From IMG/VR virus record IMGVR_UViG_2630968911_000001: a stretch of DNA of 4,896 nucleotides. One strand, written 5' to 3'. This document shows, one piece after another, positions 1 through 4,896 of this stretch. Source of the DNA: a virus. Lineage: Duplodnaviria; Heunggongvirae; Uroviricota; Caudoviricetes. The translations under genes and the position numbers were made by a program. How positions within the stretch are numbered: the stretch's first letter is position 1; every line of letters starts with the position of its first letter. Under the pieces are notes generated by a model that was not told where the DNA came from, searched no databases, and saw nothing but the letters and a program-made list of their open reading frames with translations.

Positions 1-18
1 CACTTAGCCGCGTGTCCA

Positions 19-723
19 CTATTGCTGGGTAAGATCAAAGGTTGAATCAGAACCTAGATATTTAATCTCTGGATTTTTTGCGTTACCAATAATTTCATAT
101 TTTGCTGGAAGCTCAATGTCTCTGGTCTTCATTCCATATATGCCAGAACCTTTCAAGTGAATTTTTCTTGCGCCTGAAGCGAATGCCTTCTGAAAGGCTA
201 TGCTATTATCTGTTTTTCCAGAATCATCTTTGCCACCAAAGTCTTCCAAAAATACAAAATCATCCAGCTTTTCTTGTACATTCCTGAAGACAGCACCATC
301 AACAACAGAAGGTAATCCATACTTATACTTTACTGTTTCAGGGAATGCCCCGCTTGCAAACTCTCCCTCTAGCTCATGCCGGAACTGGTCCGGGTCATAC
401 TTGAGAATGTTTGGATAGTAGAACTGCTGTGTGCCATATGCGTCATACACAGCCATTGAATGTCCCTGTACGGTAACGAACTTTGCAATCTGTCCGTTAT
501 ATACAGGGTAACCAGCGGCGTTAATGATGATTGGTTGCGAAACAGGAACGTGAGAGCCGTCTTCGTTCTCTACATAAACCTGAATCTGGTTTTCAGGATT
601 TGTCGGGTCAGTGTCAATTTTACCGATATAAATTTTGCCATTGGCAACCGCTTTAAAAGAACGCGCCATAGTGAAAAGTTGCGAAGGCATACTCACTACA
701 ACATTGGCTGTAATGTCTGTCAT
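19..723 (-). CDS. Tailspike protein, N-terminal head-binding domain (P22 gp9-like) plus start of a divergent receptor-binding domain; ends prematurely, so possibly a pseudogene or truncated gene
   Basis: The 234-aa ORF begins [40 protein letters not shown]...TVQGHSM...LKYDPDQ, which I recognise as the conserved N-terminus of P22-type tailspikes (full-length proteins are about 600-700 aa). [21 protein letters not shown] motif at aa 161-180 resembles the start of a pectate-lyase-like beta-helix. On the minus strand GGAG (732..735) sits 8 nt upstream of the ATG at 721..723. The ORF stops at TAG (19..21) and a second in-frame stop follows at 4..6. Confidence 0.8.
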
Positions 724-731
724 TTAATTTG

Positions 732-735
732 CTCC
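732..735 (-). promoter_or_regulatory. Shine-Dalgarno (GGAG) for the tailspike gene
   Basis: On the minus strand the sequence reads ccGGAGcaaattaaATG, an 8-nt spacer to the start codon. Confidence 0.6.
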
Positions 736-742
736 GGACGTA

Positions 743-778
743 GCAATGCCGAACAAGATGCAACTTGCCCAGCATTGC
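743..778. promoter_or_regulatory. 36-bp imperfect dyad symmetry element (possible operator or RNA stem-loop) in the leader of the tailspike gene
   Basis: Plus strand reads gcaatgc-cgaa-caagatgcaacttg-ccca-gcattgc. The outer 7-bp arms are perfectly complementary, the inner caag/cttg arms share the same centre (760/761), and 14 of 18 positions pair. It lies 20-57 nt upstream of the tailspike ATG. Confidence 0.4.
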
Positions 779-887
779 ACTAATGTCAGTTATTATTTGT
801 TAATTATGAGATGAGTCTATGCAAAGAGATCTGTTGAATATTGCGTTCTATATATTTGGTTTTTGCATATTCCTGGTGTTTGCGAAG

Positions 888-2885
888 CTATTCTGACAAC
901 GCATCAGACTTAACACCCTGCGTCATAGCGTTAATAGCCTTTTGTGCCTGCTGCATGGCTTTCTCAAACGCTGTTGATCCGCGTGGGGTATTTGCCATTC
1001 GTAGCATTGCATTTCTGAATGGCTCACTCTCATAGGCGCGAGCAAGAAGGCCGTAGCTTACTGCAGCGCCAGTTGTCGCAGGGTTCATTGCTGTCCCATA
1101 TCCGATAATGAACGGAATGGTTTGCTGACCTGTAGGAGTTGTTACTGCTGCTTTTGCTGCCTGCTGAGTGGACTGAAGGTAGTTTTTCAATCCTTTCAAA
1201 TAAGCGGCTTCCTGACCCTTAAATGTGATGCCAGTCTGGTTTTGCAGGATGTTAAGCTGCCGAAGGAACTGGTCAGGGGCTCCGCCTGATTTCTCCATCG
1301 CTTTTCCAATGATGCCATTGCGCATTTGCGCCCTGCCAACACGACCAACTGAGTTATACAGCGTCTTAATTTCCGATTTGTTCTTGCTGAATAGCATGTT
1401 GTTGACAACTTCCGGCGTCAGGTCTCCTTTCATGAGAACATTCTTCAGCCTGGTATTCTTTAGTTTCGCCGCTTCGTCAGCGTAGACGGCATTGGCCTGC
1501 TGATATTTACGGAGAGTATCGTTGCCAAGATTCTGACCAATGGCACCATTGATATCGTCGGTCATCGCCTTGTAAACACGTTGAATGGCGGCATCGGAAC
1601 GGTTTGGTAACACTGGTCGCTCCCCCTTCACATCCATTCTGAACTGGCTGCGCAGATCGCTTAATTGCTTCAAATCCAGATTTACCGGACCATCAGGGCC
1701 AGCATTGCGAACAAGCTCATCACGATATGACTGAAGTTTTGAAATTGTCTCGTTATCAGCTACCTTACCAAGCTTCTGCAGATTAGATATCTCAGTATCA
1801 ATCTGCTGAATTGCTCGCGCAGGCTGGATATTGACTCCCGCCATTGCATTCTGAACCTGCTCAAGACGGTTCCCTGCAGCACGACGAATTCCTGACGTTT
1901 TAGCTTTAAGGCTGTCAATAACAACCGCTGGATCATACTCACCGAATTTATCAGCAAATCTCTGCACCAACTGGCTTCTCGCTTCCTGTTGCGTTGCTCT
2001 CATTCCGCTTGTGCCAGCCAGAGGGATATTTTCTGCTGTAGTCTGCGCCATTTTTCCGACGCGGGAAGTTGGTTGTAACAGGTCTGTGGTGTGCAGAGGA
2101 ATTCCTTCACGCTCTGCAAATCTGATAGCCTGCTGCGCTTCTGGCGCGATAGCACCACGAACGCCACGATAAGCAGCACCTAATCCACGTCCAGCAGCGT
2201 TAATAGCACCGCCAGCAAGTACACCAACGCCTAAATCGGTGGCGAGTGCTTCCGCATCATCTTTCGCACTATTTGCAGCAAGTGATCCAACTGCGTTTTC
2301 TGCCAGAAGGCGAGTTGCCCCCTGAGCAATTCGACCAGCAAGTGTTGGTGCCTGTGCTGCCGCTCTCTCAACGCCAGCAGGAGTGAGGTAAGGCAATGCT
2401 TCAGCAAATACTCTTCCCTCTGTCGTTTGTGGAGTCAGCGCGCCTTGCTGAAGGCCAAAGTCCTGCTCTAATCCCTGCGTTGTTACTCGTGGAGCTGGTT
2501 GATATGTACCATCGCCAATGCCGAGTTTACCGCCAGCCCAAGCCGCCGCGCTTGTTACAGCATCGGCAACTGATGCAGGTATGTTTGCCACGTTCACGCC
2601 AGCCTGCACCAGTCCGCGACCTGTTTCTTTCGCGGCTTCACCAAGATCAGACATAAATCCACTTTGCTGTGGTTGTTGCTGTGATACTGGTTGTTGTATC
2701 TCCACTGGCTGCACAGATGGCAATGGATAGGCAGCATAGAAAGCTTGCTTAGCCTGCTCTGCATTTTCTCCGGCTTTCGGGGCCACGACTTCATTGAAGT
2801 ATTGCTCCTGAGCCTGCGCTTTTTGTTCTGGTGCTAACGCCTGATACTGTGGAGAGGCGATAACATCTTTCCATGCTTTAGCCAT
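888..2885 (-). CDS. Phage ejection (DNA-transfer / internal virion) protein, P22 gp16/gp20-like
   Basis: A 665-aa ORF sits immediately upstream of the tailspike in the same orientation, which is the position of the ejection proteins in P22-like genomes. It is Ala/Gln/Gly-rich with a Q/P-rich low-complexity linker (aa 57-76) and a Gly/Ala hydrophobic segment (aa 217-239). Its ATG (2883..2885) overlaps the upstream stop as TAATG, and a GGGGTGA Shine-Dalgarno-like sequence (2889..2895, minus) precedes it. The family assignment is by context and composition, not a verified alignment. Confidence 0.6.
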   Translation of the reverse strand: MAKAWKDVIASPQYQALAPEQKAQAQEQYFNEVVAPKAGENAEQAKQAFYAAYPLPSVQPVEIQQPVSQQQPQQSGFMSDLGEAAKETGRGLVQAGVNVANIPASVADAVTSAAAWAGGKLGIGDGTYQPAPRVTTQGLEQDFGLQQGALTPQTTEGRVFAEALPYLTPAGVERAAAQAPTLAGRIAQGATRLLAENAVGSLAANSAKDDAEALATDLGVGVLAGGAINAAGRGLGAAYRGVRGAIAPEAQQAIRFAEREGIPLHTTDLLQPTSRVGKMAQTTAENIPLAGTSGMRATQQEARSQLVQRFADKFGEYDPAVVIDSLKAKTSGIRRAAGNRLEQVQNAMAGVNIQPARAIQQIDTEISNLQKLGKVADNETISKLQSYRDELVRNAGPDGPVNLDLKQLSDLRSQFRMDVKGERPVLPNRSDAAIQRVYKAMTDDINGAIGQNLGNDTLRKYQQANAVYADEAAKLKNTRLKNVLMKGDLTPEVVNNMLFSKNKSEIKTLYNSVGRVGRAQMRNGIIGKAMEKSGGAPDQFLRQLNILQNQTGITFKGQEAAYLKGLKNYLQSTQQAAKAAVTTPTGQQTIPFIIGYGTAMNPATTGAAVSYGLLARAYESEPFRNAMLRMANTPRGSTAFEKAMQQAQKAINAMTQGVKSDALSE

Positions 2886-3511
2886 TAATCACCCCATAGT
2901 GAAGAAAAGTTACTGCCAGTAGTAGATTGTTGCCCTGGCATATTCTGCACCGGCTCCTGATAATCAAACTGTTTTTTAACAGTGCTCAACTTGCTTTCAA
3001 GCTGATTTCTAATCTTTCCGATAGAGTCACGAAAAGCCTTTTCACTCATTTTGGGGCTTAGGGCACCAACCGCATCGGATAATTTTTTACCCTCAGCATC
3101 TGAAAGAGCGCCCATACCCTTCAGGGACTGCACCATAGGAAGGAAAGTTTGAGCTTTAAAGGTGTCGAGCCTTGCTTCAAAGTTAGCCGCATCAGAGCCA
3201 GGAACTGTCGGAAACGCTGAGCGAATTCCTACTGCTTTTGAAAGGCCAGGGCTTTGCTCTATCTCGTTGAGAGAATCAAGCGCGGTGCTGAACGTATCAA
3301 CTGCACCCTGAGCAGCGGCCTGCCTGTCAGCGCGGGCTATGTCAGCCTTTTGCCGAACATCTGCCTGTTTCTGTTTTAGCTCTTCAAGCTTTAACTGATT
3401 GCTTTCTCTGGCTATTTGTCTGTCCAGAGCCTTTTCTTGTAATTCTGCTCTTTGTATTTCGCGGGAAAGAGCAGCATTCTGTGCGCTGATGTTCTGTCCA
3501 CGTAATGGCAT
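2885..3511 (-). CDS. Coiled-coil phage ejection-protein-like ORF, probably the 3' portion of a gene truncated at its 5' end (P22 gp20-like or gp7-like)
   Basis: The 208-aa ORF has a strongly charged heptad-like N-terminal half (REIQRAELQEKALDRQIARESNQLKLEELKQKQADVRQKADIARADRQ) and is translationally coupled to the downstream 665-aa gene. There is no convincing Shine-Dalgarno upstream of its ATG, and an in-frame stop lies only 4 codons upstream (3524..3526). Confidence 0.5.
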   Translation of the reverse strand: MPLRGQNISAQNAALSREIQRAELQEKALDRQIARESNQLKLEELKQKQADVRQKADIARADRQAAAQGAVDTFSTALDSLNEIEQSPGLSKAVGIRSAFPTVPGSDAANFEARLDTFKAQTFLPMVQSLKGMGALSDAEGKKLSDAVGALSPKMSEKAFRDSIGKIRNQLESKLSTVKKQFDYQEPVQNMPGQQSTTGSNFSSLWGD

Positions 3512-3552
3512 TGAGCAGGCAACTCACTGGATGCCACTACCGGAACCGCCGC

Positions 3553-3558
3553 AGGAGG
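3553..3558 (+). promoter_or_regulatory. Shine-Dalgarno (AGGAGG) for the ASCH-like gene
   Basis: AGGAGG is followed by a 6-nt spacer and an in-frame GTG at 3565. Confidence 0.6.
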
Positions 3559-3564
3559 TTAACC

Positions 3565-3849
3565 GTGGCTAACCTGCAACTTGCCGTCAAAGGTGAATAC
3601 TTCGATGCCATTATTCGCGGAGAGAAAACTGAAGAGTATCGCCTGTGTAATGACTACTGGAATAAGCGAATTATGTTCCGGGAGTATGACCGCCTGATTA
3701 TCACAAAGGGATATCCGAAGCGCGACGATTCCAGCCGCAGAATTGACGTCCCGTATGACGGATATGAAATCAAGACAATCACACATCAGCACTTCGGCGA
3801 TAAACCGGTAAAGGTGTTCGCGATAAAGGTGAATATCGGCAATGAATAA
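3565..3849 (+). CDS. ASCH/PUA-like domain small protein (YqfB-like fold), accessory early-left gene
   Basis: The listed ORF 3505..3849 has no ribosome-binding site at its ATG, whereas the in-frame GTG at 3565 has a consensus AGGAGG. The 94-aa product begins MANLQLAVKGEYFDAIIRGEKTEEYR, matching the N-terminal beta-strand and G-x-K-T motif pattern of ASCH domains (compare YqfB ...DDILAGRKTITIRD). Assignment is from motif recollection only. Confidence 0.55.
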   Translation: MANLQLAVKGEYFDAIIRGEKTEEYRLCNDYWNKRIMFREYDRLIITKGYPKRDDSSRRIDVPYDGYEIKTITHQHFGDKPVKVFAIKVNIGNE

Positions 3850-3850
3850 C

Positions 3851-3880
3851 AATCCTCGAACTCGCGGGGATTTCTTTTAT
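3851..3880 (+). terminator. Putative intrinsic terminator-like hairpin 1
   Basis: Stem 3853-3858 / 3865-3870 (tcctcg/cgcgggga, 6 bp including one G-U), a 6-nt loop, then the U-rich run tttcttttat (3871..3880). It starts 4 nt after the ASCH stop codon. Confidence 0.35.
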
Positions 3881-3883
3881 CTG

Positions 3884-3908
3884 AACTCGCTACGGCGGGT
3901 TTTGTTTT
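3884..3908 (+). terminator. Putative intrinsic terminator-like hairpin 2
   Basis: Stem ctcgc (3886..3890) / gcggg (3895..3899) with tetraloop tacg, extendable by A-U pairs, followed by ttttgtttt (3900..3908). It is an imperfect direct repeat of hairpin 1 (gaactcgc...GGG...TTTnTTTTAT). Confidence 0.45.
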
Positions 3909-3921
3909 ATGGAGACAAGAA

Positions 3922-4266
3922 ATGTCAGATTTGGCTATGAAGGTTTTGAAATGGCAATCGACTGGCGATGTCGGCATCAGTAGCGCAACTCTTGCCTCAA
4001 TCGCATGTGGACTGAAAAAGAATATCTATGGTCATCACTTCGGCGCTCCCCATGACGCAGCAGATTTCCGGCGATGCGTTGCGCTTGTTGAGCAGATTAC
4101 AGAAATCAGAGATTCATTCGACAAGGTTGCAAAGCGCGTTCCGGCATTCAAAGGAATCCTCAACGAATGGGATTCCCTCGTTGCTCTGTTGAAGTCTGAA
4201 ATGAAGATACACGGAAACAAAGCACCAGAGACTTACAGAAGAATCAGCGAGCTACGCAAGGACTAA
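3922..4266 (+). CDS. Hypothetical protein (114 aa), accessory early-left gene of unknown function
   Basis: ATG at 3922 is preceded by GGAG (3911..3914). The ORF runs to TAA at 4264..4266 in the same orientation as the flanking genes. I recognise no family; there is a C-x7-HH-x4-H-x7-C spacing at aa 29-51. Confidence 0.55.
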   Translation: MSDLAMKVLKWQSTGDVGISSATLASIACGLKKNIYGHHFGAPHDAADFRRCVALVEQITEIRDSFDKVAKRVPAFKGILNEWDSLVALLKSEMKIHGNKAPETYRRISELRKD

Positions 4267-4269
4267 CCC

Positions 4270-4288
4270 GCCTCACACTCGATGAGGC
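4270..4288 (+). other. Short GC-rich hairpin between the hypothetical gene and xis
   Basis: gcctca (4270..4275) pairs with tgaggc (4283..4288) around the 7-nt loop cactcga. No strong U-tract follows (ctgtacatttctc). Confidence 0.25.
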
Positions 4289-4353
4289 CTGTACATTTCT
4301 CAAGATATCCAGACCTACCGCAATCATGTCAATCCAATAAATGGAGATTCCAG

Positions 4354-4701
4354 GTGGAAGAAGAAATCTTCACTCGTGAAGAAGCTGCGTCGTATCTGAA
4401 GGTAGACAAAGGCACTATCACACAGTGGATACGAAGTGGACGACTTCAGGCCGCAAAGATAAATCCAGATAAACCTAAAAGTCCATATCGCATTTGCAAG
4501 TCAGACTGCATTGCGGCGCTTAAGTCTGTGAGACACAATAGCGCGGTGAATGCGGTTGATGTGCAGGAGGTTAAAGCATGTCAATCAAACTACGCGGTGG
4601 CACGTGGCACTGCGATTTCGTCGCGCCAGATGGATCAAGAGTTAGACGCTCTCTTGAAACATCGGACAAAAGGCAAGCGCAAGAACTTCACGATCGTCTA
4701 A
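4354..4701 (+). CDS. xis: Excisionase-family helix-turn-helix DNA-binding protein (Xis/AlpA-like)
   Basis: An in-frame GTG at 4354 is preceded by GGAG (4343..4346). The product contains TREEAASYLKVDKGTITQWIRSGRLQAAKI, a typical excisionase-type HTH, and sits immediately upstream of the integrase gene. The listed ATG at 4282 lies inside a hairpin with no ribosome-binding site. The 3' end is uncertain because the frame overlaps the int start by 124 nt. Confidence 0.6.
   Translation: MEEEIFTREEAASYLKVDKGTITQWIRSGRLQAAKINPDKPKSPYRICKSDCIAALKSVRHNSAVNAVDVQEVKACQSNYAVARGTAISSRQMDQELDALLKHRTKGKRKNFTIV
4565..4570 (+). promoter_or_regulatory. Shine-Dalgarno (AGGAGG) for int
   Basis: AGGAGG is followed by a 7-nt spacer and ATG at 4578. 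Confidence 0.6.
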
Positions 4702-4896
4702 AAGCAGAAGCGTGGAGAGTAAAAAATCTCGGGGAATCACCGAAAAAGCTATTCAAGGAAGCCTGCATACGGTGGCTGCGTGAGAAATCGGATAAGAAGT
4801 CCATTGATGATGACAAGAGCATTATATCGTTCTGGATGTTGCACTTCAGAGAAACCATTCTCTCAGACATAACAACAGAAAAAATAATGGAGGCGG
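4578..4896 (+). CDS. int: Tyrosine recombinase / phage integrase, N-terminal region (partial; 3' end beyond the window)
   Basis: This frame is open from ATG 4578 to the window edge and is missing from the ORF track only because it has no stop inside the window. The translation MSIKLRGGTWHCDFVAPDGSRVRRSLETSDKRQAQELHDRLKAEAWRVKNLGE... matches the conserved N-terminal arm-binding region of lambdoid and P22-type integrases as I recall it. It has a strong ribosome-binding site and xis immediately upstream. Confidence 0.8.
   Translation, partial: MSIKLRGGTWHCDFVAPDGSRVRRSLETSDKRQAQELHDRLKAEAWRVKNLGESPKKLFKEACIRWLREKSDKKSIDDDKSIISFWMLHFRETILSDITTEKIMEA

Follow-up and report, generated by a model that had tools for sequence, protein, structure and literature searches.

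The tailspike gene at the left end of the window (the whole 4,896-bp stretch of DNA analysed here) is split by transposition of IS3 into a prophage gene, a reading to which a probability of about 0.97 may be given. Both stop codons that close the shortened reading frame are encoded by IS3, and the rest of the gene survives intact.

An exact-protein look-up identified the window as the complete 4,896-bp draft contig JPKJ01000066.1 (GCA_000768415.1), reversed. It is matched over its full length, with 2 mismatches, by positions 3619151-3624046 of the complete chromosome of E. coli G4/9 (NZ_CP060073.1). G4/9 is presumably among the E. coli genotypes that make up the probiotic Symbioflor 2. Coordinates beyond the window are given on the G4/9 locus L001, in which the window occupies 15001-19896 save for the two SNPs. 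These lie at window positions 215 and 4099, neither of them at the stop, so that the context record is not base-for-base identical to the window and one of the two differences falls within the tailspike stub. The SNP at 215 gives K170 in the stub; the corresponding residue is T in G4/9 and ST3 and S in CBA120 TSP3. K170 could be either a base error of the draft or a real variant of the pseudogene. An Rfam scan of the window returned zero matches.

IS3 and the end of the tailspike frame

The following features of the window are needed to read the left end:

1..37, minus strand: left terminal inverted repeat of IS3 (its outermost 37 bp), containing both stops; the remainder of the element lies beyond the left edge
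19..723, minus strand: chimeric ORF of 229 native tailspike residues, 5 IS3-encoded residues (DLTQQ) and an IS3-encoded TAG
38..40, no strand: right copy of the target-site duplication AAG; the left copy (L001 13777-13779) is on the opposite side of IS3
38..723, minus strand: 5' portion of the native tailspike gene (nucleotides 1-686 of 1,764; residues 1-229)

The ORF at 19..723 on the minus strand begins with an ATG at 723 and has 234 codons, ending at TAG (19..21) with a second in-frame TAA at 4..6, and window positions 184..243 on this strand encode tailspike residues 161-180. The preliminary description, which had called attention to the early stop and to a motif at these positions, was accurate in all these particulars. 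It had also regarded the gene as disrupted, by a nonsense mutation, frameshift, deletion or insertion to the left of the window. The disruption is confirmed. It is due to IS3, whose insertion duplicated 3 bp of the target: when the sequence is compared base by base with the intact allele of ST3, IS3 is seen where a nonsense mutation or frameshift had been considered. The bulk of the insertion does lie to the left as supposed, but the end of IS3 (1..37) is within the window. That positions 1..37 are a terminal repeat of IS3 and not tailspike DNA had been overlooked.

Intact alleles match the window from position 38 onward only, while positions 1..37 match IS3 ends in thousands of genomes. The intact ST3 gene reads ...catagtgAAGgttgaatc... 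with a single AAG, and the corresponding DNA of G4/9 reads ...catagtgAAG[TGATCCTACC ... GGGTAAGATCA]AAGgttgaatc.... The insertion point follows tailspike nucleotide 686 in codon 229, the codon for F229 straddling the junction. Because the short-read contig broke at a repeated element, the window ends within IS3; its left edge is a contig break and no biological boundary is to be sought there.

The element is 1,258 bp long (L001 13780-15037), with the ends TGATC...GATCA. Its terminal repeats, TGATCCTACCCA... and ...TGGGTAAGATCA, are imperfect, 28 of 39 positions being complementary by a hand count on the alignment. It encodes orfA (99 aa) and, overlapping it, orfB, which has an rve (integrase catalytic core) domain. 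In RefSeq the IS3 transposase is a joined CDS noted as 'programmed frameshift' (-1), with the Pfam domains HTH_Tnp_1, HTH_21 and rve, and a DDE (rve) transposase domain is accordingly predicted. The features expected of the IS3 family are all present: a length of about 1.2-1.5 kb, TG...CA repeats, a 3-bp duplication, the orfA/orfB arrangement, and multiple copies. There is no material difference from the IS3 of E. coli, with which the element agrees in length, repeats, duplication and orfA/orfB. Relative to known IS3 insertions, what is new is the target site alone, codon 229 of the present tailspike allele.

IS3 ends occur at 10 and 9 places on the G4/9 chromosome according to two junction queries. 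They are at least 99% identical in most of the matching records of one junction search, and in about one quarter of those of the other. A second, identical IS3 is found at L001 5876-7133, in direct orientation and 7.9 kb from the copy at 13780-15037. Between the two copies lie an integrase, gtrABC and the 3' tailspike fragment; such a pair could undergo IS-mediated deletion or behave as a composite transposon.

It had been proposed to look left of the window for the rest of a beta-helix ORF and for an IS. Both are there, 357 codons continuing in frame beyond IS3. RefSeq annotates, in order, a 357-aa 'right-handed parallel beta-helix repeat-containing protein', the IS3 transposase and a head-binding pseudogene. 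When IS3 and one AAG are removed in silico, a 587-aa ORF without a stop is obtained, identical to the ST3 tailspike at 573 of 587 positions with no gaps. With intact tailspikes of other strains it has 98% identity. IS3 is therefore the sole lesion in the tailspike gene, since its excision restores a gap-free ORF of 587 codons.

Division of the tailspike between two fragments

The stub comprises a head-binding domain (residues 1-113; window 385..723), a neck (111-124) and about the first 105 residues of the catalytic domain. Its only Pfam match is Head_binding (PF09008), at residues 1-113, with the whole profile covered (E = 6e-68). Matches in the PDB include the N-termini of the P22 and Sf6 tailspikes. 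The PHROG tailspike profiles that match it are all 343-954 positions long, and the stub covers just 100-200 positions at their N-terminal end. The restriction of the Pfam match to Head_binding and of the PHROG matches to the N-terminus indicates that the ORF is truly truncated. Alignment to full-length tailspikes, which had been suggested earlier, identifies the stub as an N-terminus lacking the receptor-binding body; residues 1-229 match the intact 587-aa ST3 tailspike at 98%.

A contiguous C-terminal beta-helix receptor-binding domain (about 450-550 aa on one polypeptide) is absent from the window ORF. Pfam matches to Beta_helix and NosD are confined to the intact ST3 protein and the separate 357-aa fragment, and a tailspike with its receptor-binding domain is recovered only once IS3 is removed in silico.

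In the reconstituted protein, residues 114-586 align end to end with residues 158-626 of CBA120 TSP3 (PDB 6NW9, 5W6F; E = 8e-223), with a single length difference of 4 residues. A tblastn search of the CBA120 genome gives 66% identity over residues 114-587. The limits of the TSP3 domains are a neck helix at 155-168 and the D3 beta-helix at 169-574, which opens with splayed loops at 169-230 (PMC6517402). With a numbering offset of -44 from TSP3 to the present tailspike, the correspondences are:

TSP3 155-168, tailspike 111-124: neck helix
TSP3 169-574, tailspike from 125: beta-helix domain D3
TSP3 169-230, tailspike 125-186: splayed loops opening D3 (its first 61 residues)
TSP3 Glu362 and Asp426, tailspike E318 and D382: catalytic residues

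The stop had been placed about 80 residues into the receptor-binding domain. It does fall within that domain, but native sequence extends through about 105 residues of D3, about 43 of which belong to the regular beta-helix. E318 and D382 are conserved in ST3 and G4/9, and both are on the 3' fragment, beyond the insertion. TSP3 (ORF212) cleaves the O77 O-antigen (PMC10408124), and by homology across D3-D4 the present allele is predicted to encode a TSP3-type O-antigen glycosidase domain.

The two proteins differ in their anchors: CBA120 TSP3 has the D1/D2 head domain of the Ackermannviridae, whereas the tailspike here has a P22-type head-binding anchor, the PF09008 domain that it has in common with P22 gp9, Sf6 gp14 and HK620 gp9. 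The gene order is that of Sf6 and P22, with the tailspike right after the gp16-like ejection gene and adjoining gtrABC and att, and the flanking DNA is 94% identical to that of Sf6. In contrast, the receptor-binding part bears no relation to its counterparts in P22 and HK620, and the Sf6 tailspike is only 35% identical over residues 1-466. Unlike the P22-like tailspike genes, the present gene is split by IS3.

The course of events is best read as follows. A P22/Sf6-like prophage at thrW received a copy of IS3 in its tailspike gene, and AAG was duplicated. Translation of the 5' fragment would then enter the left inverted repeat of IS3 for 16 nt, add DLTQQ and end at the IS-encoded TAG. The 3' fragment (codons 231-587), with most of the beta-helix and the equivalents of both catalytic residues, was left 1.26 kb from the head-binding domain. 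The stub amounts to a particle-attachment domain without an enzyme, and the 3' piece to an enzyme core without an attachment domain and missing the first part of its fold. Judging from domain content, a functional tailspike is probably not made from the split gene, and neither fragment would act as one.

The prophage remnant at thrW

The rest of the window is occupied by the following features, those from 3505 onward being based on RefSeq annotation, Pfam and PHROG:

888..2885, minus strand: gp16-like DNA-transfer (ejection) gene, intact, 665 aa; full-length match to phrog_770 (E = 1e-237)
2885..3504, minus strand: 3' half of a gp20-like ejection gene, its last ~206 codons; the 5' half is deleted
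3504/3505 (3502..3505), no strand: deletion junction with at most 3 bp shared, GTA at 3502-3504
3505..4896, plus strand: early-left/integration end
to 3572, plus strand: 3' stub of a DUF551 gene
3565..3849, plus strand: ASCH-domain gene; ASCH match below threshold (18.2 bits against a cut-off of 21.2 bits)
3922..4266, plus strand: gene for a conserved 114-aa phage protein, between the ASCH gene and xis; full-length match to phrog_1229
4282..4701, plus strand: excisionase, 139 aa; Pfam HTH_17, phrog_2907
4584 to the window end, plus strand: 5' part of the integrase

The gp16-like gene, for which PF26808 (Phage_P22_gp16) is recorded, is directly upstream of the tailspike as in Sf6, has the same length in ST3, and is 94% identical to Sf6 at the DNA level. 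Next to it, the gp20-like fragment corresponds to positions 229-435 of the 435 of phrog_2534 (P22 gp20-like); the intact ST3 gene is 1,302 bp long. Similarity to both ST3 and Sf6 ends at window position 3504, and the 208-aa ORF listed at 2885..3511 takes its ATG (3509..3511) from foreign DNA past the junction. RefSeq labels this ORF an 'acyltransferase', for which its PHROG match, phrog_2534, gives no support.

At the junction, late-operon DNA meets the 3' end of a DUF551 gene from a lambdoid early-left region, and RefSeq annotates pseudogenes on both sides of it. The head, tail, lysis, replication and immunity genes have all been removed by the deletion, an illegitimate event. The prophage is thus dead in a second way, because the deletion took everything from the middle of the gp20-like gene through to the early-left region. 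The earlier suggestion of a defective prophage is borne out by the IS3-split tailspike together with this large internal deletion.

In the early-left region the PHROG profiles matched are phrog_2907 (excisionase), phrog_625 and phrog_1229; Pfam gives no domain for the protein of 3922..4266. The excisionase ORF overlaps the annotated start of the integrase by about 118 nt. Its true start may lie downstream of the listed ATG, since the PHROG profile covers residues 25-139 only. The integrase ends just beyond the window, 15 bp from tRNA-Thr(CGT).

Exact direct repeats of 64 bp are found at L001 9571-9634 and 20735-20798, the second of which includes 46 bp of tRNA-Thr(CGT). Direct att repeats, overlap with the 3' end of a tRNA gene and an adjacent integrase together mark a phage remnant integrated at a tRNA. 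The remnant is 11.2 kb long and has the order attL - gtrABC - 'tailspike - IS3 - tailspike' - gp16 - 'gp20 / 'DUF551 - ASCH - orf - xis - int - attR(thrW) - proA. As att sites, xis and int are retained, its excision may still be possible. On its left, at L001 1-9574, is a second lambdoid remnant in tandem (ybcN, ren, truncated P, gam-bet-exo, xis, int), which has itself suffered an internal deletion, between P and gam, and contains two IS elements.

Cryptic prophage remnants that keep cargo genes exist at thrW, such as CP4-6 of E. coli K-12. The present remnant resembles the CP4-6 type in its position at thrW beside proA, in a distal att that is a partial tRNA, and in its internal deletion and IS insertion. 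As in the CP4-6 type, it also lies in tandem with other remnants, and in related strains its neighbours are yagJ/yagK-type genes. It differs in being P22/Sf6-like and in keeping an apparently intact gtrABC along with xis and int. The persistence of the remnant may be due to gtrABC or to neutrality.

Related isolates, alternative readings and meaning

Among 5,426 RefSeq complete genomes, searches for both junctions found G4/9 only. Sharing of the insertion was seen in draft or non-RefSeq assemblies, which were reached through exact-protein look-ups. The possibility that the insertion is private to G4/9 or artefactual was rejected, the same junction being present in other public assemblies. The 357-aa 3' fragment is recorded on 47 contigs. 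In three assemblies (L005, L006 and L008) the complete IS3 is present together with the 3' fragment, gtrCBA and att, at 99.9% identity. Four others (L009-L012) start within IS3 and share the IS3 end, the same junction and the rest. All seven are flanked by yagP/paoD-type genes in place of the second integrase. L006 retains the N-terminal junction (window 1-500), followed by another IS; it has nothing beyond window position 500, so that the start of the stub is lost. In L005 and L008 the N-terminal side is wholly lost. In two more (L013 and L014) the match to the window begins at position 40 and runs across the 3504/3505 junction, the contigs breaking at the IS site. Since other assemblies carry the same IS3 junction and the same deletion, both lesions have been inherited within one lineage, with later erosion on top.

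Other elements have entered the same region. In L014 (GCA_047887115.1) an IS21-family element (IstA/IstB) lies in the gp16-like gene, at L014 ~7735-9688 (window ~1031-1035), and the alignments on its two sides have 5 bp in common, as would be expected of a target duplication. In ESC818 (L003 6383-7640), the same tailspike allele contains ISEc31, of 1,258 bp, at window 417-419 (codon ~102), with the target-site duplication AGT, in the opposite orientation and with DNA unrelated to IS3. This insertion is also present in JNE25 and JNE12, and the surrounding prophage in ESC818 otherwise looks complete. An insertion hotspot had been suggested as an alternative. The gene has indeed been hit by different IS in different lineages, but no site was reused: IS3, ISEc31, the second IS of L006 and the IS21-family element of L014 are all at different sites, and a site-specific hotspot is rejected for this reason.

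Three other explanations of the short ORF may be weighed against the IS3 insertion. One is that the gene is in truth continuous and is cut short at 19..21 by a point nonsense mutation, by a frameshift or by an error of sequencing. The window alone shows just an ORF stop, and the two bases at which the draft contig departs from the complete genome show that errors or variants do occur. These bases, however, are 215 and 4099, away from the stop. Similarity to all intact alleles ceases at position 38 and not at the stop codon; 1..37 is an IS3 end with a second in-frame stop at 4..6; and the rest of the gene is 1,258 bp off behind a 3-bp duplication. The ORF is restored by the removal of 1,261 bp and by no base change, which refutes the sequencing error that had been named as an objection and leaves a point change with practically no likelihood. 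It could also be argued that the contig end is chimeric or a collapsed repeat and that the tailspike is intact in the real genome, given that the short-read contig ends 37 bp into a multi-copy repeat, a typical repeat-induced break, and that G4/9 has about 10 IS3-end matches. Yet in the complete G4/9 chromosome the gene halves are separated by an entire IS3 with a clean 3-bp duplication, and IS3 is likewise complete beside the 3' half in no fewer than three further long assemblies (L005, L006, L008). Moreover, L006 has both junctions, and several drafts break exactly at the same site. An assembly artefact is therefore extremely improbable.

The third explanation accepts the 234-aa product as functional, either as a tailspike adaptor or as a head-binding decoy against the assembly of superinfecting P22-like phages. 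It is favoured by the completeness of the head-binding domain and neck, by the crystallisation of the head-binding domain alone (PDB 1LKT), and by the persistence of the fragment in several isolates. Against it, the C-terminus and stop are IS-encoded and not the native C-terminus that an adaptor of about 230 aa would have. Short adaptors with the same C-terminus, which had been named as a finding that would speak against disruption, were absent from the phage records searched, and among the listed top tblastn matches and the PHROG profiles all were full-length tailspikes. Nothing like a late promoter or activator remains upstream after the deletion; a promoter and terminator scan of 1..1000 gave a single promoter-like site where chance alone predicts 2.6. 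Among related isolates, L006 has lost the start of the stub to a second IS, and L005 and L008 have no stub left, which argues against selection for keeping it. A functional short protein is accordingly given very little credence. Hardly more can be said for a wider version, in which the remnant would be an excisable O-antigen-modifying island and its stub an expressed decoy on the tailspike sites of superinfecting P22/Sf6-like virions; this is very unlikely, and sister isolates in which the stub is lost or further disrupted speak against it.

The splitting of the tailspike by IS3 and the erosion of a cryptic prophage at thrW are both textbook phenomena, already known and representing ordinary decay. 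None of these results would surprise a specialist, and their main worth lies in annotation. What looks like a short tailspike is a pseudogene split by IS3; the annotated 357-aa 'right-handed parallel beta-helix protein' 1.3 kb away is the other half of the tailspike; and the 208-aa ORF at 2885..3511 is a deletion-truncated gp20 fragment. More generally, a contig break within a repeat can mimic a premature stop. The locus exemplifies the stepwise erosion of a prophage, by a deletion and IS3 and, in sister isolates, by IS21-family and other IS elements, with gtrABC (O-antigen glucosylation/modification) apparently intact despite the erosion around it.
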